Shown here: positions 19,397 through 62,795 of the stretch, piece by piece
Numbering within the stretch: position 1 is the stretch's first letter
Layout of the letters: the number at the start of each line of letters is the position of its first letter
Source of the DNA: Acidobacteriota bacterium
Lineage (GTDB): Bacteria > Acidobacteriota > Vicinamibacteria > Vicinamibacterales > CAVVIG01
Assembly: GCA_016195265.1 (NCBI GenBank)
Contig: JACPZW010000009.1
Span: 1,125-65,124, forward strand
Direction of reading: 5' to 3'
Length of the DNA: 64,000 nucleotides
Notes under the pieces: generated by a model
Databases searched by the model: none
Told to the model about the DNA's origin: nothing
What the model saw: only the letters and a program-made list of their open reading frames with translations
Translations under genes and position numbers: made by a program

Positions 19397-19407
19397 GGTA
19401 AAAAGAA

Positions 19408-19442
19408 AGTGAAAACTGAGAAGTGAGAAGTGAAAAGTGAGA
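19408..19442. repeat. One-armed purine heptad array, (AGTGARA)x5
   Basis: The units agtgaaa actgaga agtgaga agtgaaa agtgaga lie between the dprA stop codon and the topA start. Confidence 0.7.
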
Positions 19443-19457
19443 AGGCGGAAGGAATAA

Positions 19458-21929
19458 ATGGCAAAAGCGCTCGTCGTGGTCGAGTCGCCGGCGAAGGCGA
19501 AGACCATCAACAAATATCTCGGACGTGACTTCAAAGTCATCGCGTCGATGGGGCACATCCGCGATCTCCCGAAGAGCAAGCTGGGCGTGGACATCGAGAA
19601 CGACTTCATCGAGACGTATGAATCGCTCGTGTCGCGCAAGAAGGTCCTGAAGGAGCTGAAGGACGCCGCCAGGGACGCGTCGGACATCTACGTCGCGACC
19701 GACCCCGATCGCGAAGGCGAGGCGATTGGCTGGCATCTCATCGAGGAGCTCAAGGGCAAGAAGCGGAAGTTTCATCGGCTGACCTTCAACGAAATCACCA
19801 AGAAGGCGATTACCGAAGCGTTGAAGCATCCGCGCGCCATCGACGAGAAGATGGTCGACGCGCAGCGGGCCCGCCGCGTGCTCGACCGGCTGGTCGGCTA
19901 CAAGATCAGCCCGCTGCTGTGGGACAAGGTGCGCCGCGGCCTCAGCGCTGGCCGCGTGCAGTCGGTCGCCTTGAAGCTGGTCTGCGATCGCGAGCGCGAG
20001 ATCGAACGATTCGTGCCCGAGGAATACTGGCACGTGTTCGCCCGGCTGGCGGGTCCGCAGCCGCCGGAGTTCGAAGCGAAGCTGTTCAAGAAGGCCGGCG
20101 ACGCGATCCGCGTGGCGAACGAGGATCAGTCGAAGGCGATTCTCTCGGACCTCGAGCGCGCGTCGTGGGTGGTGTCCTCGGTCGCCACCAAGGAGCGCAG
20201 GCGCAACCCGGCGCCGCCCTTCATCACAAGCAAGCTGCAACAGACCGCACGCTTCCCCGTGAAGAAGACGATGATGCTGGCGCAGCAGCTCTACGAAGGC
20301 GTGGAGCTGCCCGGGCTCGGCGTCGAAGGGCCGATCGGCCTCATCACGTACATGCGCACGGACTCGGTCCGGATCGCAGACGAAGCCCTCGCGGCCGTCC
20401 GCGATCACGTCAGGACCGCGTTCGGGCCCGACTACCTGCCCGAGACCCCGAACGCCTACAAGTTGAAATCCGACGCGCAGGACGCGCACGAGGCGATTCG
20501 TCCGACGTCGATGCAGTACGACCCGGAAACCGTCCGGCCGTACCTCACGCAGGATCAGTACTCGCTCTACCGCCTGATCTGGAACCGGTTCGTCGCGTCG
20601 CAGATGACGCCGTCGACGTTCGACGAGACCACCGTCGACATCTCGGCCGCCCCACCGACAGGCTCTGAGCAGGCGGACTATGTGTTCCGCGTCAAGGGCA
20701 CCGTGCCGAAATTCGCCGGGTGGATGGCGACGTACGGTCCCGCGCAGAGCGAGGAAGAGAAGGAGCCTGTCGCGGCGCCGGAGCGCGACGCCGACGAGGA
20801 TGGCGCGGTGTCCGGCGTGCTGCCGGCGCTGGCGGAGGGCGATCGCCTGGAACTGAAAACGCTGCGGCCCGAACAGAAGTTCACGCAGCCGCCGCCGCGC
20901 TTCACGGAAGCCACGCTCGTGAAGGAGCTCGAGGAGAACGGCATCGGCCGCCCGAGCACCTATGCGTCGATCATCGGCGTCCTGCAGGACCGTGAGTACG
21001 TCCACAAAACCGAGGGCAAGTTCAAGCCGTCACAGATGGGCCTGATGATCAGCGATCTGCTCGTGAAGAGCTTCGACGACATCATCGACGTCGAGTACAC
21101 GCGCAGCCTCGAGGACGACCTCGACAAGATCGAGCAGGGCAAGACCGGCTACGCGAAGACCCTCAAGGAGTTCTACAAGAAGTTCAAGAAGGACCTGACG
21201 AAGGCCGGCAAGGAGATGATCGATCTCAAGAAGGGAATCGACATCGGCGAGGCCTGCGACAAGTGCGGCAAGCCGATGCTCAAGCGCGTCGGCAAGTTCG
21301 GCCTCTTCATCGCGTGCAGCGGATACCCGGACTGCACGAACACGCGCGAGGTCGAGGGCGCGGAGCCCGAGTCCGAGAACGGCGAGGAAGAGATCGATCC
21401 GTGCGAGAACTGCGGCAAGCCGATGGCCGTCAAGCGCGGCCGGTTCGGCCAGTTCCTCGCGTGCACGGGGTATCCCGACTGCAAGACGACGCGCAAGCTG
21501 ATCGCGACCAAGCAGGGCGGCCTCAGGGCCGCGAAGCCCGACCAGATCCTCGAGGAGCCGTGCCCGCGCTGCGGCGCCAGCCTCGTCATCAAGCAGGGCC
21601 GCTTCGGCGAGTTCACCGCGTGCACGAAGTACCCCGAGTGCAAGTACGTCAAGCACAAGACGACCGGCGTGAGGTGCCCGAAGGACGCCGACAAGGGCGG
21701 TGACGTCGTCGAGCGCAAGTCGCGCCGCGGGAAGATCTTCTTCGGCTGCTCGAACTATCCCGATTGCGACTTCGTGCTGTGGAACCGGCCGGTCGCGGAA
21801 ACCTGCCCGAAGTGCGCGGCGCCGTACCTGGTCGAGAAGACGACGAAGAAGCACGGCCGGCAGATTCTCTGCAACAATGAGGACTGCGATTATGCGCGGT
21901 CCGAGGAACTCCCGGAATCAGCCGCCTGA
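19458..21929 (+). CDS. topA: DNA topoisomerase I
   Basis: A TOPRIM domain (LVVVESPAKAKTI), an active-site region (ITYMRTDS) and four C-terminal CxxC...C zinc ribbons. Confidence 0.97.
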   Translation: MAKALVVVESPAKAKTINKYLGRDFKVIASMGHIRDLPKSKLGVDIENDFIETYESLVSRKKVLKELKDAARDASDIYVATDPDREGEAIGWHLIEELKGKKRKFHRLTFNEITKKAITEALKHPRAIDEKMVDAQRARRVLDRLVGYKISPLLWDKVRRGLSAGRVQSVALKLVCDREREIERFVPEEYWHVFARLAGPQPPEFEAKLFKKAGDAIRVANEDQSKAILSDLERASWVVSSVATKERRRNPAPPFITSKLQQTARFPVKKTMMLAQQLYEGVELPGLGVEGPIGLITYMRTDSVRIADEALAAVRDHVRTAFGPDYLPETPNAYKLKSDAQDAHEAIRPTSMQYDPETVRPYLTQDQYSLYRLIWNRFVASQMTPSTFDETTVDISAAPPTGSEQADYVFRVKGTVPKFAGWMATYGPAQSEEEKEPVAAPERDADEDGAVSGVLPALAEGDRLELKTLRPEQKFTQPPPRFTEATLVKELEENGIGRPSTYASIIGVLQDREYVHKTEGKFKPSQMGLMISDLLVKSFDDIIDVEYTRSLEDDLDKIEQGKTGYAKTLKEFYKKFKKDLTKAGKEMIDLKKGIDIGEACDKCGKPMLKRVGKFGLFIACSGYPDCTNTREVEGAEPESENGEEEIDPCENCGKPMAVKRGRFGQFLACTGYPDCKTTRKLIATKQGGLRAAKPDQILEEPCPRCGASLVIKQGRFGEFTACTKYPECKYVKHKTTGVRCPKDADKGGDVVERKSRRGKIFFGCSNYPDCDFVLWNRPVAETCPKCAAPYLVEKTTKKHGRQILCNNEDCDYARSEELPESAA

Positions 21930-21940
21930 GAAAATGCGGC

Positions 21941-21985
21941 CACGAAGACACGAAACCACGAAGAAGATGATTCGTGTTTTCGTGT
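21941..21985. repeat. CACGAAG-family hairpin after topA; probable terminator or mRNA end structure
   Basis: ACACGAAA-c-CACGAA (21948-21962) pairs with TTCGTG-t-TTTCGTGT (21971-21985). That is 14 bp with one mismatch and an 8-nt loop. Confidence 0.65.
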
Positions 21986-22001
21986 TGGGCCGGCCCGCAC
22001 A

Positions 22002-23444
22002 ATGATCACGATCGTTGGCGGCGGTCTCGCGGGTTCTGAAGCCGCGTGGCAGGCGGCCGAATGTGACGTTCCCGTCACGCTCCACGAGATGCGTCCGGTC
22101 CGGCCGACGGTGGTGCACAAGACGGACCGGCTCGCCGAGCTCGTCTGCAGCAACTCCTTCCGCGGCGACAAACTCGACAATGCCGTCGGCCTCCTCAAGG
22201 AGGAAATGCGACGCCTCGGGTCGCTCGTCATGCGCGCGGCGGAGGCGAGCCGCGTGCCCGCCGGCGCGGCGCTGGCCGTCGATCGCGAGCGGTTCGCCGA
22301 GACGATCACGCGCGCGATCACTAAACATCCGCGAATCACCGTGACGCGGCAGGAGGTCACGGCGATTCCGGATTCCAGCGAGCGCGCTCCGGTCATCATC
22401 GCGACAGGCCCGCTGACGTCCGACCCGCTTTCCGCGGCGATCGCCGTGCTCGTTGGCGAGCGGTATCTGTATTTCTACGACGCCATAAGCCCGATCGTCC
22501 TCGCCGAGACCATCGATCGATCGCGAGTGTTCCGCGCGTCGCGGTGGGGAAGAAGCCTTGGCCCGAAGAGCGACGTGCGGGGTGCGGAGTGCGACGTGCG
22601 GCGTACGGAGCGGGGCGACGTGGTCCCCGCGGAGCGCGTCCGGGGGGCGGGGGCCCCCGGATTGGACAATGATGGGCAGGGCGATTACCTGAATTGCCCG
22701 CTGACGCTCGACGAGTACGACCGCTTCTACAACGCGCTGGTGACGGCCGAGTCGGCGACCGTGCACGACTTCGACAAGGAGCGCTTCTTCGAAGGCTGCC
22801 TGCCGATCGAGGTGATGGCGCATCGCGGCCGCGACACGCTGCGCTTCGGTCCGATGAAGCCGGTCGGGCTCGTCGATCCGCGAACCGGGCGCGAACCGTA
22901 CGCGGCGGTGCAATTGCGCCAGGACAATCTCGCCGGCGACCATTTCAGCCTCGTCGGCTTTCAAACGCAGATCAAATGGGGCGAGCAGGCGCGCGTCCTG
23001 CGGCTGATTCCTGGTCTCGAGCAGGCGGAGTTCGTCCGCTTCGGCATGGTCCATCGCAACACCTATGTGAACGGGCCGTCGGTGCTCGACGAGACGTGGC
23101 AGGTGAGAGCGCGGCCGACGCTGTTCTTCGCAGGACAGATGTCCGGCGTCGAAGGGTACGTGGAGTCGGCGGCGTCCGGTTTAATCGCGGGGTTGAACGC
23201 CGCCGCCCTCGCGCGAGGCGAGGCGATCGCGCCTCCGCCCCGGACCACGGCCATCGGCGCGCTGGCGTATTACGTGGCGCACGCGAATCCGGCGCACTAC
23301 GAGCCGTCCAACATCACGTTCGGGATCATCCCGCCGCTGCCCCACGCGCCGCGCGGGAAGAAGCTGCGCAACCAGGCGCTCTCCGATCGCGCGCTCGCCG
23401 ACCTCGACGGCTGGATGCGATCGCGCACGCTGGTGCACCAGTGA
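22002..23444 (+). CDS. trmFO: Methylenetetrahydrofolate--tRNA-(uracil-5-)-methyltransferase
   Basis: Motifs include ITIVGGGLAGSEAAWQ, LVCSNSFR, YLNCPL and FAGQMSGVEGYVESAASG. Confidence 0.95.
   Translation: MITIVGGGLAGSEAAWQAAECDVPVTLHEMRPVRPTVVHKTDRLAELVCSNSFRGDKLDNAVGLLKEEMRRLGSLVMRAAEASRVPAGAALAVDRERFAETITRAITKHPRITVTRQEVTAIPDSSERAPVIIATGPLTSDPLSAAIAVLVGERYLYFYDAISPIVLAETIDRSRVFRASRWGRSLGPKSDVRGAECDVRRTERGDVVPAERVRGAGAPGLDNDGQGDYLNCPLTLDEYDRFYNALVTAESATVHDFDKERFFEGCLPIEVMAHRGRDTLRFGPMKPVGLVDPRTGREPYAAVQLRQDNLAGDHFSLVGFQTQIKWGEQARVLRLIPGLEQAEFVRFGMVHRNTYVNGPSVLDETWQVRARPTLFFAGQMSGVEGYVESAASGLIAGLNAAALARGEAIAPPPRTTAIGALAYYVAHANPAHYEPSNITFGIIPPLPHAPRGKKLRNQALSDRALADLDGWMRSRTLVHQ
22574..22615. 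repeat. GTGCGGN heptad array inside trmFO
   Basis: The units are cgtgcgg ggtgcgg agtgcga cgtgcgg cgtacgg agcgggg. The reverse complement of GGTGCGGAGTGCG recurs at 60455-60467. Confidence 0.7.
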
Positions 23445-24424
23445 CGCGCCATCTGAAGGCGTTCCTGCAGTTCCTCGCGCTCAATCGCAACGCGTCCGCG
23501 CACACGGTTCGCGCCTACGAGAGCGATCTCGGCCAGCTTTTCGCCTTCACGGCTGCCGCGGCGAAGACGTCCGTCGCGGACCTTCAGCCGGCGCAACTCG
23601 ATCGCCTGGCGCTGCGCGGCTTCCTCGGCGATCTGCACAAGCAGGGACAGTCACGCGCGTCGGCGGCGCGCAAGCTCGCGGCCGCCCGGACGTTTCTCAA
23701 GTACCTCCGCCGCGAAGGCGTCATCGAGGACGATCCCGGCGCGCTGGTCTCCACGCCGAAGCGGGACATCCGCATGCCGGCGCACCTGTCCGAAGGCGAG
23801 ATGTCGGCGCTGCTCGACGCGCCGGCCCTCGACAACGCGCTGGGCCGCCGCGATCGCGCGATCCTCGAGCTGTTCTACGCGTCGGGCCTGCGCGTCAGTG
23901 AGCTGGCCGGTCTCGACATCGATGACGTGAACCTGAGCGCGCGCATGGTCCGTGTGCTCGGCAAGGGCGGCAAGGAACGCATCGTCCCGTTCAACACGAG
24001 CGCGACGAAAGCGATCCGAGCCTACTTGAACGATCGCGAGCAGCTGGTGCGAGGCGGGGGTTCGAATCGTGGCGTCCGGCTTCAGCCGGACCGTCGTGGT
24101 CCGTCTAAAGGCGGACGCCACGCGGGAAACCGCGACCCGCTCTTCGTGAACTATCTTGGCCGGCGCTTGACGGTGCGGAGCATCGCGCGGCTGGTTCGGC
24201 GCTACGTCGCCGCGAGCAGCGCGCGGATGGGCATCAGTCCGCACGCCCTCCGGCATTCGTTCGCGACGCACCTGCTCCAGCGCGGCGCCGACCTGCGTGC
24301 GATCCAGGAGCTGCTTGGTCACGCGCGTCTCAGCACGACGCAGCGCTACACGCACGTGAACGCGGCGCAGCTGCTGGAGGTTTACAGGAAGTCGCACCCA
24401 CGGGCGAAGTCCACCAACGGCTAA
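23441..24424 (+). CDS. xerC: Tyrosine recombinase XerC
   Basis: N-terminal SAM-like core (FLALNRNASAHTVRAYESDL) and catalytic residues in ...RDRAILELFYASGLRVSEL...HALRHSFATHLL...LLGHARLSTTQRYTH. The GTG overlaps the trmFO stop codon (GTGA). Confidence 0.9.
   Translation: MTRHLKAFLQFLALNRNASAHTVRAYESDLGQLFAFTAAAAKTSVADLQPAQLDRLALRGFLGDLHKQGQSRASAARKLAAARTFLKYLRREGVIEDDPGALVSTPKRDIRMPAHLSEGEMSALLDAPALDNALGRRDRAILELFYASGLRVSELAGLDIDDVNLSARMVRVLGKGGKERIVPFNTSATKAIRAYLNDREQLVRGGGSNRGVRLQPDRRGPSKGGRHAGNRDPLFVNYLGRRLTVRSIARLVRRYVAASSARMGISPHALRHSFATHLLQRGADLRAIQELLGHARLSTTQRYTHVNAAQLLEVYRKSHPRAKSTNG
24068..24122. repeat. Nested palindromic (REPIN-like) element inside xerC
   Basis: CGTGGCGTCCG (24068-78) pairs with CGGACGCCACG (24112-22). 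Inner hairpins are GTCCGGC-ttca-GCCGGAC and CGGACC-gtcgt-GGTCCG. Confidence 0.7.
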
Positions 24425-24425
24425 T

Positions 24426-24458
24426 CATGAAGCCACGAAGAACACGAAGCGCACGAAG
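24426..24458. repeat. CACGAAG array forming the left arm only
   Basis: CATGAAG and three copies of CACGAAG sit at 24426, 24434, 24443 and 24452, directly after the xerC stop codon. Confidence 0.7.
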
Positions 24459-24534
24459 AAGATCAGAGAGTAGAGCCTCACGTTGATGCCGATCCTCGGA
24501 ATGGCGCCTTCCGCCTATCCTCGGACTTCGCGGC

Positions 24535-24554
24535 AATTGGCGCCGGCGCCAATT
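24535..24554. repeat. Perfect 20-bp palindrome
   Basis: AATTGGCGCCGGCGCCAATT lies in an apparently non-coding 380-nt stretch. Confidence 0.8.
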
Positions 24555-24849
24555 CGTGGGTCCGGGCGCTGTCGAATTCAGGCGAATCGCACGGGCCGAA
24601 GGACTTGCCCCCGGACCGCGTGGCGTCAATAAATGCCCGCGAGTGGCGGGTGGTTCATGCGCGCGAGCGCACGTGCAACGAGCGGCTGACTAGCAATTGT
24701 CGCGATCCGCCCATAGAACGTTAGCCAGCGGAATCAACAACAACTCAAGGCGAACGATCAAGAACACGAAATTTGCCACGAGCACGAACTGCCGGCTTCA
24801 ACATCTACAGTCTTGACCGGGCGGTCGTGTCCCCTCTACTCTGTTCCGC

Positions 24850-25077
24850 ATGGAATACCAACACTTGATCACGATCGAAACCGGCAAACGGGGCGGGAAA
24901 CCGTGTATTCGTGGGCTACGCATCACCGTCTCGGACGTGCTCGACTACCTCGCATCGGGCATGTCTGAAGATGAAGTTCTTCGCGATTTTCCGGATCTGA
25001 CGCACGAAGACATCCGCGCGTGCTTCGCGTTCGCGGCTGATCGCGAACGGCGGCTCATGGCAATCGGCACGAAGTGA
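24850..25077 (+). CDS. DUF433-family antitoxin-like protein
   Basis: The sequence GKRGGKPCIRGLRITVSDVLDYLASGMSEDEVLRDFPDLTHEDI matches the DUF433 pattern as I recall it. Confidence 0.85.
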   Translation: MEYQHLITIETGKRGGKPCIRGLRITVSDVLDYLASGMSEDEVLRDFPDLTHEDIRACFAFAADRERRLMAIGTK

Positions 25078-25406
25078 AACTGCTGCTCGATCAGAATCTC
25101 TCTCACCGACTCTGCGACCGTCTTGCCGATCTCGGGGTTACCGCTGTGCATGTTCGCAGCGTTGGGCTGGAAACCGCTGATGATGCTCGCGTCTGGGACC
25201 ATGCTGCCGAGCACGAGTTCATGATCGTCAGCAAGGACGGAGACTTCAACAATCGAGCGTTTCTCTTTGGGCCTCCGCCAAAGGTGGTTTGGATTCAACG
25301 AGGCAACTGTTCGACGCGAGACATTGAGGACCTATTGCGAGCGCGTCACGCGGATCTGGTCACGTTCGCTGCTGATGCCTCGGCCGCGTTGCTTATTCTC
25401 GAGTAG
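25074..25406 (+). CDS. DUF5615 (PIN-like/Mut7-C-like) toxin-like protein
   Basis: The sequence is MKLLLDQNLSHRL...ADDARVWDHAAEHEFMIVSKDGDF. The GTG overlaps the upstream stop codon (GTGA). Confidence 0.85.
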   Translation: MKLLLDQNLSHRLCDRLADLGVTAVHVRSVGLETADDARVWDHAAEHEFMIVSKDGDFNNRAFLFGPPPKVVWIQRGNCSTRDIEDLLRARHADLVTFAADASAALLILE

Positions 25407-25553
25407 ACCGAGAGCCGGATCATACTGGCTCGCTGGCTAACAACGCGCTGGAGCCGTCGGCGCGGAACTGACGCTGGCGCGCCGCGGCTCAGCGCGAACG
25501 TTGGGCTGACGGCAAACACGAACGCGAAACGTGACGATGGTAGAATCGTAATC

Positions 25554-25733
25554 ATGGAAATCACCGAGAAGCAGCGCGCCATCGAGGCGCTTCGGGCCTT
25601 GCCCGAACACGCCACGATCGAGGATGCGATCGAGCGGCTGTGCTTCATCGCGAAGATCGAAGAGGGATTGCGTCAATCGGATGCACACCAGCTCGTGTCC
25701 CACGATGAGGTCAAAAAGCAGTTCTTGTCGTGA
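25554..25733 (+). CDS. Small antitoxin partner of the ParE/RelE toxin; not in the ORF track (59 aa)
   Basis: My own translation gives MEITEKQRAIEALRALPEHATIEDAIERLCFIAKIEEGLRQSDAHQLVSHDEVKKQFLS. Its stop codon overlaps the toxin GTG (GTGA). Confidence 0.7.
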   Translation: MEITEKQRAIEALRALPEHATIEDAIERLCFIAKIEEGLRQSDAHQLVSHDEVKKQFLS

Positions 25734-26023
25734 GGGTCGTGTTCTGGACGAAGCAAGCGCTGGCCGATCTGGCCGCGATTCGCGCGTTCATCAGTCAGGA
25801 CTCGCCTCACTACGCGTCGGTCATCGTCTCCCGGCTCATCGCGGCGACAGATCGATTGGTTCCATTCCCTGAATCTGGCCGAGCAGTACCGGAATTCGAC
25901 GATCCGTTGGTCCGGGAAGTCGTGGACCGGCCCTACCGCATCGTCTATCGACTGGTGGGTATCGACGAGGTTCACGTGCTGACGGTCCATCACTCATCAC
26001 AGAGCTTCCCCGAAGAACTCTGA
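25730..26023 (+). CDS. RelE/ParE-family toxin
   Basis: The sequence WTKQALADLAAIRAFISQDSP...FPESGRAVPEF...REVVDRPYRIVYRL...VHVLTVHH has a typical ParE layout. Confidence 0.85.
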   Translation: MRVVFWTKQALADLAAIRAFISQDSPHYASVIVSRLIAATDRLVPFPESGRAVPEFDDPLVREVVDRPYRIVYRLVGIDEVHVLTVHHSSQSFPEEL

Positions 26024-26039
26024 TCTGCAGCCCAACACC

Positions 26040-26966
26040 GGGCGCGGGGCGTTCACGGGCGCGGCAGGATCGTGTGGAGGTGTTCGAGGCCGCCCACGAC
26101 GGCACGCTGTTCCTCGATGAAGTGCGTGACGTATCGCCGGCGCTGCAGGTGCGGTTGTTGCGCGTGCTGCAGGCCCGCGAGGTGCGACGCGTGGGGGAAG
26201 TGCGCCTGCGGCCCGTTGATGTGCGCCTGATTGCGGCCACGCATCGCGATCTGGCGGCGGACGTGGCGCAGGGGCGCTTCCGCCAGGACATGTACTACCG
26301 GTTGCGCGTCGTGGATGGGCACGTGGCGCCGCTGAGGGAGCGCGTCGCGGACGTGGGTGTGTTGATGGATCAGTTGCTGGCGCGCGTGGCAAGCCGGATG
26401 GGGCGGCGGATTCGCGGGTACACGGACGCTGCGCGGCAATTTCTGATTGATTATGCGTGGCCGGAGAACGTCCGCGAGCTGGAACTCGCCGTCGAGCGCG
26501 CGTGTACCGTCTCCGAACAGCCGCTGATCGACGTCGGCGACCTGCCGGACGCGATTCAGCATCGGTTTGTCGTGGATCCGCCGGCGGGCAGTCCCGCCCG
26601 CTGCGCGAGATGGAGCGCGAGTACGTGCAGCTCATCGTCCGGCGCCATCGGGGCGACCGCCGTCGCGCCGCTGAAGAACTCCCGATCTCGCTGGCGACGC
26701 TAAAACGCAAATTGATCGAGGCTCGGCGGCCCGACACGTATCGCGGGCGGCCCTTGTCGACCGCGTTCGTCGCCCGCGGCCTGCCGCAGACGTCTATCAG
26801 GGACCTCGACGCGAACCTTCAGCGAATCGTCGCGGCGATCCGCGACCATGCGGCGGGGATCGGCACACGGATCGCCGCCCGTGCGGCGATTGACGCCGCG
26901 ATCGCGGGAGGTCTGACCGCGATCCAGCATCTCGATTCGAAGCTCCACACACACGAAGACCAGTAA
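26040..26966 (+). pseudogene. 5'-truncated, doubly frameshifted sigma-54-dependent activator remnant
   Basis: GAFTGA (26046-26063) is in frame 0. GTLFLDEV...VRLIAATHRDL...WPENVRELE is in frame 1. The HTH (ELPISLATLKRKL) returns to frame 0. The receiver domain and Walker A are absent. Confidence 0.8.
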
Positions 26967-27003
26967 AGGCTTCGTGTACCTTCGTGGCCTTCGTGTCTTC
27001 GTG
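26951..27003. repeat. CACGAAG-family right arm, one CACGAAG plus four CTTCGTG
   Basis: ACACGAAG (26951-58) pairs with CTTCGTGT (26970-77). Further CTTCGTG units start at 26980, 26989 and 26997. Confidence 0.7.
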
Positions 27004-27014
27004 ATGTGCTTTGG

Positions 27015-28427
<1,413 letters not shown>

Positions 28428-28435
28428 CTTCCTAC

Positions 28436-28470
28436 CAGCCCTCAGCCCTCAGCCCTCAGCCCTCAGCCCT
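28436..28470. repeat. Perfect (CAGCCCT)x5 tandem heptad array
   Basis: Five exact units occupy most of the 47-nt gap between the kinase stop codon and the regulator start. Confidence 0.9.
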
Positions 28471-28474
28471 TTGC

Positions 28475-29674
28475 CTACTTGAACCATCCCGACGCGCTCG
28501 ACACGGGCAGCGTCACGCGAAACCGCGTGCCCACGCCCGGCGTGCTGTTCACATCGATCCGGCCGTCGTGCGCGTCCACGATCTTCCGCACGATCGCGAG
28601 GCCGAGCCCCGAGCCCTGCGGCTTGGTCGTGAAGAACGGATCGAAAATCTTGTCCGTCACTTCCACCGGCAACCCGGGACCGTTGTCCTCCACGTCCACG
28701 ATGACCATCGGCGTCGGCGCCGGCGACGTCGCCGCGGCGAAGGCCGGATCCGCTTCGACGAGTTTCGAGAGCGCCGTGATGACGAGGCGCCCTTTTCCCT
28801 CGAGCGCCTCGAAGGCGTTCGTGATCAGATTCGTAAAGACCTGGCTGAGCTGGTGGTCATCGCACTCGATGGCGAGCCTCGGCTCGACGTCGACCTCGAC
28901 GCTCACCTCGCCCCGCGACGTTTTCGACTCGGCCATCGTCACCGCCTGCTGCAGCACCCCGGCGACGTCGGTGCGCTCGACCTGCAGGCGCACGGGCCGG
29001 ACGAACTCGAGCATTTCGACCACGATCTTGTTGGCCAGCTTGGCTTCGCTGAGGATGTCGGCGAGTAGCGACTGCGCGTCCTTCGAGTCGGGCACCTGGC
29101 GCCGCAGAAGGCCGGCCATGACCTCGATGCCCGCGAGCGGATTCTTCAGCTCGTGCGCGATGCCAGCCGCCATTTCGCCGAGCGACGCGAGCCGGTTCCG
29201 CAGGCGCTCGCTTTCCTCGCGCTGTTCGACCAGCGTGAGGTCCTTGAAGAACATCGCCGCGCCGATCGACACGCCGTTGTCGTCGGTCACCTGCGAGAGC
29301 GTGTAGCCGATCACGCGATCGAGGTCGCGCATCCGCAGCTCCGCGCGATTCGGCAGATGGCTCAGCTCGAAAGCCGCCGACAGCACGCGGATGATCGCGG
29401 GTCGTTCGCGCAGGACGTGGCTGAACGGCCGGCCGATGTCGCCGGCGCGCCGCGTGAGGCCGAAGATCCGGTAGGCCTCGTCGTTCATGAGGGCGACCGT
29501 GCCGTCGCGGTGAATCGCGATGACGCCGTTGCGCATGTTGCCGACGATCTGCCGGAAGAAGCGATCGTCGGGCGCCGCGTCGCGCTGCGCGGCTGGCCGG
29601 CGCGCGCGCGCGCGCGCGGGCGAAATGGGGCGGCGCGGGCGGCGGCCGTCCGAACGTTTGGGGATGTTGGACAT
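28475..29674 (-). CDS. Cytoplasmic PAS sensor histidine kinase (NtrB-like)
   Basis: A PAS domain (FRQIVGNMRNGVIAIHRDG), an H-box (GIAHELKNPL) and the N, G1 and G2 boxes (NLITNAFEAL, DNGPGL, GSGLGLAI). The start is the ATG at 29674. Confidence 0.88.
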   Translation of the reverse strand: MSNIPKRSDGRRPRRPISPARARARRPAAQRDAAPDDRFFRQIVGNMRNGVIAIHRDGTVALMNDEAYRIFGLTRRAGDIGRPFSHVLRERPAIIRVLSAAFELSHLPNRAELRMRDLDRVIGYTLSQVTDDNGVSIGAAMFFKDLTLVEQREESERLRNRLASLGEMAAGIAHELKNPLAGIEVMAGLLRRQVPDSKDAQSLLADILSEAKLANKIVVEMLEFVRPVRLQVERTDVAGVLQQAVTMAESKTSRGEVSVEVDVEPRLAIECDDHQLSQVFTNLITNAFEALEGKGRLVITALSKLVEADPAFAAATSPAPTPMVIVDVEDNGPGLPVEVTDKIFDPFFTTKPQGSGLGLAIVRKIVDAHDGRIDVNSTPGVGTRFRVTLPVSSASGWFK

Positions 29675-29705
29675 GATGGCGCGCACAGGCACGCGGTCAC
29701 GATGG

Positions 29706-29720
29706 GCAAATCGTGTGCCT
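29706..29720 (-). promoter_or_regulatory. Candidate sigma-54 promoter (-24/-12) for the PAS kinase/NtrC-like operon
   Basis: The minus strand reads aGGCACacgatTTGCc, with canonical GG-N10-GC spacing, about 30 nt upstream of ATG 29674. Confidence 0.4.
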
Positions 29721-29823
29721 GCGTCCTGCGTCAGTCGATCTGAAGAAACCCACATAAAATCAGCGGGTTAGAGGTACGAAGCCCGAACAATGATAACAAA
29801 ATTGTAATGCGATTACGATCTTG

Positions 29824-43200: not shown

Positions 43201-43293
43201 GAGTTCAGATTTCAGAGTTCAGATTTCAGATTGATTGCAGATCTTGTGACTTGCCCCTCAATCTGAAATCTGAACTCTGAATTCTGAAATCTC
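43201..43293. repeat. Long heptad hairpin, (TTCAGAK)n versus (MTCTGAA)n
   Basis: 43211-43231 is the exact complement of 43261-43281 (21 bp). Pairing extends to about 30 bp with mismatches, around a 29-nt loop. The element starts at the first base after the upstream stop codon. Confidence 0.9.
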
Positions 43294-44008: not shown

Positions 44009-44060
44009 CCAGCCACCCATCACTAGCCACCCGTCACCAGCCACCAGTCACCAGCCACCA
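44009..44060. repeat. CCAGCCA-family array running up to the next start codon
   Basis: The sequence is ccagccacccatcactagccacccgtcaccagccaccagtcaccagccacca. Confidence 0.7.
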
Positions 44061-59754: not shown

Positions 59755-59765
59755 TGAAGGAAGAA

Positions 59766-59848
59766 ATGCAGGAATGCAGGAATGCAGGAATGCAGAGAAG
59801 CGTGCGGAATGTCTCTCTTGCATTCTTGCATTCCTGCATTCTTGCATT
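59766..59848. repeat. Octad hairpin, (ATGCAGGA)x4 versus (CTTGCATT)x4
   Basis: The left arm is 59766-59797 and the right arm 59817-59848. Allowing G:U wobble, about 32 nt of RNA can pair. The loop is 19 nt. Confidence 0.88.
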
Positions 59849-60329: not shown

Positions 60330-60470
60330 CGGGGTGCTACGTGCTCCGCACGAGGCCCTTCGCACCTCGCACTTCGGCACCAGGCACAGCACCACGCACC
60401 TCGGCACCAGGCACAGAGCACCACGCACCTCGGCACCAGGCACGGCACCCAGCACCTCCGCACTCCGCAC
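60330..60470. repeat. GTGC-periodic repeat block containing an approximately 29-nt tandem repeat x3
   Basis: The 29-nt units are about 60361-60389, 60390-60417 and 60418-60446 (cacgcacctcggcaccaggcaca...). They are flanked by gtgcggggtgc (60328-60338, just overlapping the listed start) and ccgcactccgcaccc. Confidence 0.75.
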
Positions 60471-61160: not shown

Positions 61161-61306
61161 GTGACTGGTGGCTGGTGGCTGGTGGCTGGTGGACGGCGAA
61201 GAGGGCTGCGGGCTGGAGGGCTGAGGGCCCTGGGAGTCCGAGTCGTTGAGCACGGCGCAAGCGTAACCGATTGTTGTCAGCCCTCAGCCCTCCGCTCTCA
61301 GCCCTT
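61161..61306. repeat. Composite repeat: a GGTGGCT array plus inverted AGGGCTG/CAGCCCT arms
   Basis: The first part is gtgactggtggctggtggctggtggctggtgg (61161-92). Then gagggctgcgggctggagggctgagggccctggg (61201-34) faces cagccctcagccctccgctctcagccctt (61278-306). Confidence 0.8.
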
Positions 61307-62717: not shown

Positions 62718-62795
62718 GTGGCTGGTGACTGGTGACTGGTGGCTGGAAATACCGCCATTGAGCCCTCAGCCACTAGCCACCAGCCACTAGCCACC
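62718..62795. repeat. GGTGGCT/CCAGCCA-family hairpin between the regulator stop codon and the kinase start codon
   Basis: The arm ggtggctggtgactggtgactggtggctg (62718-46) faces cagccactagccaccagccactagccacc (62767-95), with about 4 mismatches in 29. Confidence 0.78.

Follow-up and report, generated by a model that had tools for sequence, protein, structure and literature searches.

A probable layered island of toxin–antitoxin gene cassettes between complementary CACGAAG arrays in the xerC–ntrC spacer of an acidobacterial genome

We analyzed a 64,000-nt stretch of DNA from an uncultured acidobacterial order, the Vicinamibacterales (contig JACPZW010000009.1, positions 1,125 to 65,124; hereafter the window), in which about 2.5 kb of accessory DNA separates xerC from a convergent gene for an NtrC-type response regulator (ntrC). 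This islet holds two toxin–antitoxin (TA) gene pairs and a dead activator gene, and it is bracketed by two complementary arrays, or arms, of four CACGAAG-type units each. A sequence-only reading had proposed that foreign DNA was inserted into the loop of a pre-existing hairpin, or that the arms act as terminal inverted repeats. We find that the object is a small cluster of integron cassettes resembling a CALIN (cluster of attC sites lacking an integron integrase) within a core-gene hotspot, and that its components are of kinds already known. The islet is probably a layered island, in which an old insertion parted a resident CACGAAG hairpin and an integron fragment came later. Its features are as follows; other loci and contigs used for comparison carry numbers with the prefix L.

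24426–24458, plus strand: left arm, CATGAAG c CACGAAG aa CACGAAG cg CACGAAG, 2 nt past the xerC stop codon
24459–24720, plus strand: non-coding leader of 262 nt
24721–25500, plus strand: integron cassette 1, starting (G|)TTAGCC and ending with its own attC (Pfam, bounded homology)
24850–25077, plus strand: predicted DUF433 antitoxin of cassette 1 (E = 2.7e-25)
25074–25406, plus strand: predicted DUF5615/PIN-like toxin of cassette 1 (DUF5615/PIN_10, E = 2.2e-32), 4-nt overlap with the antitoxin gene
25435–25506, plus strand: predicted intact attC, a 72-nt bulged hairpin (DNA fold of −28 to −31 kcal/mol)
25501–26037, plus strand: integron cassette 2, starting (G|)TTGGGC (Pfam ParE, bounded homology)
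25554–25733, plus strand: predicted 59-aa antitoxin open reading frame (ORF) of cassette 2, unnamed family
25730–26023, plus strand: predicted ParE toxin of cassette 2 (ParE_toxin, E = 5.7e-16), 4-nt overlap with the antitoxin gene
26030–26036, plus strand: lone R'' box GCCCAAC of the attC of cassette 2, the rest of the site being lost
26038–26714, plus strand: pseudogene of a PspF-like (receiver-less) sigma-54 activator, with partial Sigma54_activat (profile positions 89–165), AAA_lid_14 and HTH_8 domains
26715–26969, plus strand: tail of non-native DNA read through by the pseudogene ORF, common to L165 except for 39 nt
26970–27003, minus strand: right arm, CTTCGTG tac CTTCGTG gc CTTCGTG t CTTCGTG, 11 nt past the stop codon of the NtrC-type gene

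Cassettes, leader and pseudogene of the islet

Both TA pairs are integron gene cassettes. Each consists of a small antitoxin gene overlapping a toxin gene, as in type II TA systems, the toxin and antitoxin roles being predicted. The sequence-only reading had already recognized two TA pairs and a dead activator gene, and Pfam and NCBIfam bear this out, identifying a DUF433/DUF5615-PIN pair, an unnamed antitoxin with ParE, and a sigma-54 activator pseudogene.

Each cassette opens with a TTRRRY box and closes with an RYYYAAC box, and the 5′ box is the exact complement of the R'' box of the same cassette, as expected from the circular form of a cassette: GTTAGCC (24720) matches GGCTAAC (25435), and GTTGGGC (25500) matches GCCCAAC (26030). 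The joint chance of both complementarities, calculated from the 7-mer frequencies of the window itself, is ~4e-5. In the one intact attC the outer boxes, R'' GGCTAAC and R' G|TTGGGC, are paired, and the L''/L' stems CGCGCTG(G)AGCCG(T)CGGCGCG...CGCGCCGCGGCTCAGCGCG contain two extrahelical bases, both in the 5′ half. This site is of one family with attC sites in L085, L086, L087 and L169 (TGGAGCCG...CGGCTCA).

Homology to the cassettes in other contigs likewise begins and ends exactly at G|TT. Homology to cassette 1 spans only the interval from 24719 (L085, 95% identity) or 24716 (L086, 93%) to 25502, and in both contigs the copies have attC sites of other cassettes ahead of them and unrelated DNA behind them. 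Cassette 2 is matched over 25499–26037 in L169 (96%), over 25449–26036 in L168 and over 25528–26036 in L170 and L171. In L169 the attC of the ParE cassette is complete and continues ATTCAAATGGAGCCGACGCGC...GCGCGCGGCTCATTCG, whereas in the window other DNA replaces everything after GCCCAACA. The order in L085 is the C-terminus of an integron integrase (IntI), a GTTGGGC core, a PIN-type TA cassette and then the DUF433/DUF5615 cassette (95%). The IntI assignment comes from a TIGR02249 match of E = 1.6e-24 (profile positions 267–315 of 315) vs 2.8e-14 for XerD. This intI (L085 1–470) runs in the same direction as the cassettes, with its 3′ end facing the array, and ~300 nt lie between its stop codon and the first GTTGGGC core. 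L168 is an array of eight small ORFs on the same strand, of which the ParE cassette is the last. At E ≤ 1e-10 the database contains 473 relatives of the ParE toxin. The ParE cassette occurs in more than 100 protein clusters at 80–100% identity, on separate contigs mostly from soil metagenomes, and is among the more widely circulating cassettes.

Neither an integron integrase nor a transposase was found in the islet, and tblastn detected no tyrosine recombinase besides xerC in the 64-kb window. We rejected xerC itself as an integron integrase on its NCBIfam scores (XerC 328 bits vs integron integrase 115 bits, cutoff 265). The intI and attI that stand beside the array in a complete integron are missing here, and no sigma-70-like promoter site was found for the cassettes. 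The edges of the array consist of one full attC, one boundary with R' only (24720) and one remnant with R'' only (26030). Being small and having no integrase nearby, the cluster appears CALIN-like.

The intervening DNA had been described in the sequence-only reading as A/T-rich. This holds for the cassettes, with a GC content of 58.2–58.3% vs 67.5% in the whole window, and for the leader (63.4%), but not for the activator remnant and tail, which at 68–69% are host-like. The leader has no match in the 80 related loci described below. At ~24475–24484 its sequence includes CCTCACGTTG, possibly a right unit in decay, and at 24535–24554 a perfect 20-nt palindrome, AATTGGCGCCGGCGCCAATT, that occurs once in the window. 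A decayed intI was also considered for these 262 nt and rejected, as no IntI-like reading frame was found. The leader shows a weak collinear similarity to the intI–attI spacer of L085, with a score of 61 vs 40 ± 6 for shuffles (maximum 58).

The right third of the islet has a different history. Alignment of the sigma-54 activator pseudogene to intact homologues indicates a loss of ~95 N-terminal codons and frameshifts near 26064 and 26590, and the RGAFTGA motif is preserved out of frame at 26043–26063. The last ~80 codons of its apparent ORF are non-native, with intact homologues stopping ~10 aa past the helix-turn-helix (HTH) domain. We ruled out an inverted duplicate of the adjacent NtrC-type gene, since the two are 50% identical in amino-acid sequence and the pseudogene is of a different, receiver-less subfamily. 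Its closest homologue (83% identity) occupies the corresponding locus of L165 (GCA_016195295.1), the second-closest relative of the window behind the L001 group. The gene order in L165 is topA, trmFO, xerC, five small ORFs, the 5′-truncated sigma-54 gene, two minus-strand ORFs, the NtrC-type gene and the kinase. Positions 26042–27056 of the window, which extend from the pseudogene through the tail and right arm into the first 40 nt of ntrC, are 85% identical to L165. A stretch of 39 nt (26926–26964), which contains an extra CACGAAG unit at 26952–26958, is found in the window only; it is absent from L165, and no source for it was detected.

Both arms are also present in L165. Its left arm has four units with the same 8/9/9 spacing as in the window, followed by a loop and two right units, and its right arm is a decayed version of the four units of the window. 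Left of the pseudogene, L165 and the window carry unrelated cargo, and a cassette array was rejected for the L165 island, in which no attC-like sites were found. Because the pseudogene and both arms are common to the two genomes while the cargo differs, the split between the arms is old: arms and pseudogene were in place before the two lineages diverged by ~15–18% in DNA. The cassettes, with their own attC boundaries and 93–96% identical copies elsewhere, are thus later additions than the arms and pseudogene.

The sigma-54 pseudogene is cut within ~3 nt of the same point in the window (26030–26043) and in L165 (7955–7965), the DNA to the left being unrelated. On the window side, GCCCAA|CA of the R'' box of the ParE attC lies directly at the cut, a junction that may be a recombination site or a coincidence. 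The xerC gene of L165 (2684–3709) has a deletion corresponding to window positions 24247–24393 in which the catalytic-tyrosine motif RYTHV is lost, and its ORF crosses the left arm, which may point to a pseudogene or to an assembly problem.

The xerC–ntrC spacer in related genomes

The core genes around the islet, and one hairpin between them, are as follows.

19458–21929, plus strand: topA
21941–21985, plus strand: compact CACGAAG hairpin of 3 left and 2 right units, 12 nt past the topA stop codon and 17 nt before the trmFO start
22002–23444, plus strand: trmFO
~23450–24424, plus strand: xerC, housekeeping tyrosine recombinase (Pfam Phage_integrase and SAM_1)
27015–28427, minus strand: intact NtrC-type response regulator with receiver, sigma-54 AAA+ and Fis HTH domains (Pfam, NCBIfam)
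28475–29755, minus strand: histidine kinase, partner of the NtrC-type regulator

We compared the locus with the best 80 xerC relatives in the genome collection, all 80 of which belong to the Vicinamibacterales. The topA–trmFO–xerC synteny is kept in at least 80 relatives, and orthologues of the NtrC-type gene, which converges on xerC, are 78–97% identical and adjoin xerC there. The two genes are directly convergent with a gap of at most 250 nt in ~50 of the 76 measurable loci, and the gap is 21–23 nt in the closest relatives. None of the 80 related loci contains the islet genes, and no second copy of the islet occurs there or elsewhere in the window. The adjacency of the genes in relatives, together with the absence of the islet genes there, identifies the DNA between the arms as an insertion; xerC and the NtrC-type gene were ancestrally adjacent. 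The sister genome L001 shares 93.7% amino-acid identity over four proteins and ~88% DNA identity with the window, and the two are collinear over 22 kb except at 24391–27021 and at a few intergenic repeat elements.

From xerC to position 26901 the junctions were assembled independently in three sequencing runs at 99.7–100% identity. The right junction of the islet is backed by the homologous arrangement in L165. No islet-free variant from the same population was found among the Logan contigs, which match the window at 99.7–100%. An exact copy of the NtrC-type protein of the window was encoded by no contig searched, and no Rfam family was matched anywhere in the window.

The spacer between xerC and ntrC has received unrelated DNA in other genomes, several inserts being recognized.

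L007, 11893–13620: RT-Cas1 fusion ORF
L165: Cas6 fragment and NYN-domain gene
L008: DUF4926
L009: epimerase and glycosyltransferase (sugar modification)
L051: DUF2167
L176, 6852–7814, and also L177: DDE transposase ORF ending 11 nt past the xerC stop codon
Other genomes: thymidine-kinase-like inserts, named by reading the sequence and not by Pfam

This spacer therefore appears to be a long-lived insertion hotspot in the Vicinamibacterales. Two of the inserts are accompanied by pieces of the neighbouring genes. The insert at L008 3323–4113 is flanked by a 17-nt piece of the ntrC 3′ end and a 72-nt piece of the xerC 3′ end, and in L165 (8940–10057) a 43-nt piece of the ntrC 3′ end lies ahead of a second, 1.07-kb insert. 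Such duplicated target fragments suggest long staggered breaks or single-crossover integration.

The spacer also harbors hairpins made of tandem units that vary by genome (GGAATT, TTTACAA, GTGCAC, GCTGAGA, CAGCAAT, GGCGGGA and others). Several are built from CACGAAG or CACGAA units, with left (L) and right (R) units arranged as follows.

L008: unsplit 4+4 CACGAAG hairpin, then the 17-nt ntrC-end remnant
L013: small hairpin of CACGAA units
L007: 5.1-kb insert with a complete CACGAA hairpin on either flank (3L+2R and 3L+4R)
L003–L006: left units, an inserted gene and a hairpin beside ntrC, the arrangement in L006 being 3L, gene, 4L+2R

In L005 a near-identical right arm adjoins the ntrC stop codon. 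The positions of inserts relative to the hairpins vary, so there is no evidence for strict targeting of the loop.

The sequence-only reading had suggested that an intact hairpin be sought in islet-free relatives. In the nearest of these, L001, L172 and L174 (87–88% DNA identity), the spacer contains a small GGCGGGAG-agtaagaaacc-CTCCCGCC hairpin and no CACGAAG units (L001 10950–10995, L174 5115–5160, L172 7940–7985); CACGAAG-type hairpins were found in the more distant L008, L013 and L007, and the refutation test proposed in that reading thus has a mixed outcome. The small hairpin spans the xerC stop codon, and its left arm is therefore coding sequence. The XerC tail of the window is the common form, and that of the L001 group is the remodelled one. 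We rejected the idea that the xerC 3′ end and hairpin were imported by recombination, giving two alleles, as the identity profiles contain no clear footprint. Related TCCCGCC arrays or full GGCGGGA/TCCCGCC hairpins occur in the spacer of L010, L038, L041, L036 and L033. Traces of this second unit family lie in the leader just inside the left arm of the window (CCTTCCGCC, 24507–24515) and also in L165, and imply that the spacer has held two unit families.

Origin of the two arms and of the island

All eight units reported in the sequence-only reading were located, at 24426, 24434, 24443 and 24452 in the left arm and at 26970, 26980, 26989 and 26997 in the right arm. The first of these proved to be CATGAAG rather than CACGAAG, a single mismatch that is G.U-compatible as RNA, and the additional plus-strand unit at 26952, beside the right arm, had been missed. 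The spacings of the units had been described as mirrored, which is nearly so, and the spacers are indeed unpaired when the two arms are joined in silico, the joined arms folding at −43 to −54 kcal/mol. The right cluster including the 26952 unit also folds by itself, at −34.5 kcal/mol. Because the NtrC-type gene is on the minus strand, each arm reads CACGAAG four times just past the stop codon of its own gene. CACGAAG occurs 32 times on the two strands of the window vs 10.7 ± 3.1 times in shuffles (maximum 21), a ~3-fold enrichment, and it is clustered at three places only: after topA, after xerC and after the NtrC-type gene. The compact hairpin after topA had been noted before, and the region containing it (21920–22010) folds at −31.9 kcal/mol.

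Three observations favor the view that the arms are the halves of one hairpin: the equal number of units, the near-mirrored spacings and the match to L008. When joined, the window arms align with the L008 hairpin collinearly from stop codon to stop codon, each half matching the respective half. A search for other split-arm pairs, as the sequence-only reading had recommended, showed that in 1.43 Mb of Vicinamibacterales sequence (L001–L080 and L165) the window arms are the only orphan complementary array pair bracketing accessory DNA.

We therefore favor, as the probable course of events, a layered origin. In the lineage of the window, the spacer would originally have held a hairpin of ~four tandem CACGAAG units and four complementary units. 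An old insertion carrying the PspF-like sigma-54 activator gene, now dead, would have parted the two halves, most likely through a break at or near the hairpin center followed by capture of DNA, so that each half came to lie directly behind its own gene. An integron fragment composed of the leader, the two TA cassettes and a truncated third attC would have entered the variable left portion of the island later, the cassettes having been moved at attC sites by an integron integrase acting in trans. This order of events within the island seems the most plausible. With one intact attC left, the array can probably no longer move, and the TA genes would favor its retention. The proposal that foreign DNA entered a pre-existing hairpin was thus correct in that the DNA is ancestrally absent and an unsplit hairpin occupies the site in L008, but the DNA did not arrive as one piece. 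The arms have no part in moving the islet.

The same proposal had offered a different role for the arms, as terminal inverted repeats of a mobile element that moved all 2.5 kb together. Inverted repeat ends do enclose accessory genes of low GC content. The evidence nonetheless contradicts this explanation: the islet has no transposase or integrase, no direct repeat that could be a target-site duplication was found flanking the arms, and neither the 80 relatives nor the rest of the window contain another copy. In addition, the arms and the right third are fixed in place in L165 while the rest differs, the low-GC part has attC-defined boundaries well inside the arms, and hairpins of the family to which the arms belong are also found where no cargo is present.

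A further explanation is that the arms were never one hairpin. Each gene would have in its 3′ untranslated region (UTR) its own single-stranded CACGAAG array, serving for example as sites for an RNA-binding protein, and the arms would be complementary only because the genes face each other. The sense strand of each gene does read CACGAAG four times, starting 2–11 nt past the stop codon, and single-arm arrays of other units are common (19407–19443 and 28436–28470 in the window; TCCCGCC after xerC in L010 and L038). However, complete hairpins of the CACGAAG unit occur at the xerC–ntrC site in L008, L013 and L007 and also after topA in the window. The equal unit number, the near-mirrored spacing and the full-length alignment of the joined arms to L008 also argue against independent arrays, as does the uniqueness of this orphan pair in the 1.43 Mb. 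This explanation is very improbable.

The strongest competitor is a duplicated hairpin. Here a full copy would have stood on each side when the island entered, the left copy retaining its left units and the right copy its right units, after single-crossover integration of circular DNA with a hairpin of the same family or after filling-in of a long staggered break. The two complete flanking hairpins in L007 and the 3L, gene, 4L+2R arrangement in L006 fit this scheme, as do the 4L+2R composition of the left element in L165 and the right element of the window, which has 1–2 left and 4 right units and folds alone. The duplicated target pieces flanking the inserts of L008 and L165 (72 nt of xerC; 17 and 43 nt of ntrC) are consistent with it as well, and CACGAAG-unit hairpins at several nearby sites would provide homology for recombination. 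On the other hand, the extra left unit of the window lies in the 39-nt stretch missing from L165 and so looks secondary, and the 4+4 units with a near-mirrored spacing matching L008 would be a coincidence if the two copies had eroded independently. The native locus of the intact sigma-54 orthologue has no CACGAAG hairpin to give; this locus (L166) likewise led us to reject the idea that the sigma-54 gene itself brought the right arm. We judge duplication unlikely. The simple split is likelier than duplication, and both are far likelier than independent arrays or terminal inverted repeats.

Several observations weigh against a layered origin by a simple split. The lineage of L008, which provides the unsplit hairpin, is not close to the window (~76% amino-acid identity), and the nearest islet-free relatives have a different hairpin and no CACGAAG units, so that a CACGAAG hairpin is no more than a presumed ancestral state in the immediate clade. 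The island is present in the window and L165 and not in L001, which requires loss or exchange. A clean split of the loop does not explain why a left unit (26952) accompanies the right arm of the window, why two right units accompany the left arm of L165, or why the L007 insert has complete hairpins on both flanks; these leftover partner units either were regenerated later or derive from a hairpin that was duplicated at insertion, with both copies then eroding. Nor does the layered origin account for the sigma-54 cut point shared with L165 beside unrelated DNA. The likeness of the leader to an intI–attI spacer is marginal, one complete attC is present and the CALIN label hinges on counting half-sites, and the hairpins have no U-tract, any terminator role being deduced from position.

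Tandem-unit hairpins and known systems

The CACGAAG hairpins are members of a wider family with a common build, in which ~four tandem units of 6–9 nt are followed by ~four complementary units, the unit differing per locus. Six elements of this build in the window begin 2–12 nt past stop codons, among them four large hairpins distant from the islet.

43204–43288: tandem-unit hairpin, −63 kcal/mol
59765–59848: tandem-unit hairpin, −70 kcal/mol
61165–61305: tandem-unit hairpin, −83 kcal/mol
62722–62794: tandem-unit hairpin, −58 kcal/mol

A simple detector found 37 complete tandem-unit hairpins in the 1.43 Mb. Automated calls of gene orientation around them were too noisy to be usable, owing to the many spurious long ORFs in DNA of 67% GC. 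No T-run follows the tandem-unit hairpins of the window, and a scan for canonical terminators returned only the inner topA hairpin among them, with counts at the level of shuffles. Their position suggests that the hairpins could act as terminators, possibly independent of a U-tract, or as mRNA stabilizers.

We compared the topA–trmFO spacers of the window, L009, L025, L029, L044, L041 and L020. The hairpin at this site is built of CACGAAG/CTTCGTG in the window and L009 and of CACAAAG/CTTTGTG in L025, L029 and L044; at an orthologous site, the units on both arms thus change together, in a concerted drift. In L001 and L174 the hairpin is entirely lost, leaving a 13-nt spacer. Neighboring hairpins within one genome often have a common unit. 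The window also contains unpartnered tandem arrays: AAGTGAr ×5 at 19407–19443, which stops 15 nt short of the topA start codon; CAGCCCT ×5 at 28436–28470, between the NtrC-type start and the kinase stop; and AGCCAC- and GCACCA-type arrays at 44011–44059 and 60377–60438.

No published description of this hairpin family was found in the searchable literature, and it is the part of the object most likely to be new. It is conceivable, and we offer this only tentatively, that tandem-unit hairpins form an undescribed class of 3′-end palindromes with uniform units per locus, copied between nearby loci, which are prone to breakage and so a preferred entry for foreign DNA, and whose halves persist as island edge markers while the cargo turns over. 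If the hairpins were U-tract-free terminators in this high-GC group, or fragile sites drawing in insertions, they would be relevant to the annotation of Acidobacteriota genomes, and such roles would bear on how palindromes are maintained and how islands start.

The TA islet itself can be explained by known biology: integron cassettes that are widespread in soil metagenomes came to rest, free of an integrase, in a hotspot between core genes. That accessory genes gather at hotspots flanked by conserved core genes is a general concept. The xerC–ntrC spacer resembles such hotspots in that one spacer receives unrelated cargo in each genome, and it is unusual only in having hairpin halves at the edges.

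A CALIN is defined by two or more attC sites that share a strand, are separated by less than 4 kb and have no integron integrase nearby, and 83% of CALINs have fewer than 6 attC sites (Cury et al. 2016, PMC4889954). The islet resembles such clusters, and integrons generally, in its G|TT boundaries, its bulged R''/L''/L'/R' attC, the occurrence of its cassettes elsewhere beside intI, the absence of a local integrase and its small size. It differs in that only one attC is complete, that the left end is reduced to a G|TT core preceded by an unclassified leader, that the right attC breaks off past R'' and runs into a pseudogene, and that the cluster lies inside an older island between hairpin halves. 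It thus offers a useful, concrete example of a CALIN-type cluster arising and decaying, down to the junction of a truncated attC with a pseudogene.

Chromosomal integrons typically include TA cassettes that carry their own promoters (Richard et al. 2024, PMC13108822). As in sedentary integrons such as the Vibrio cholerae superintegron, each cassette of the islet carries a full type II TA pair and 5′ non-coding DNA that could hold a promoter. Unlike the superintegron, the islet is found in an acidobacterial host, has two cassettes instead of a large array and lacks an integrase. Because there is no excision, a role of the TA pairs in killing cells that lose cassettes cannot operate in the islet.

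The hairpins can be compared with two kinds of repeats. Repetitive extragenic palindromes (REPs) and bacterial interspersed mosaic elements (BIMEs) are imperfect palindromes of 20–40 nt, present in many copies per genome and associated with RAYT (TnpA-REP) transposases. Like them, the tandem-unit hairpins are short extragenic palindromes at the 3′ ends of genes that form genome families, can lie between convergent genes and can be associated with insertions (PMC2817692, PMC8266576). No RAYT-type transposase was seen here, although no search was aimed at one. An element of the IS110 family targets a repeated intergenic sequence (bioRxiv 10.64898/2026.03.19.712850). In contrast to REPs and BIMEs, the arms of the islet hairpins are tandem arrays of 6–9-nt, locus-specific units that drift in concert, and the insertions at the xerC–ntrC hotspot are not consistently in the loop. 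Arrays of the TAACTGA heptamer are intergenic direct repeats, found for the most part immediately before start codons and built from a single unit across the genome (PMC4679880, which cites Mrazek 2007 on 5–11-nt repeats). They share with the window hairpins non-coding tandem repeats of ~7 nt at fixed distances from gene ends; the window hairpins, however, are paired with their complement, follow stop codons and use many different units.

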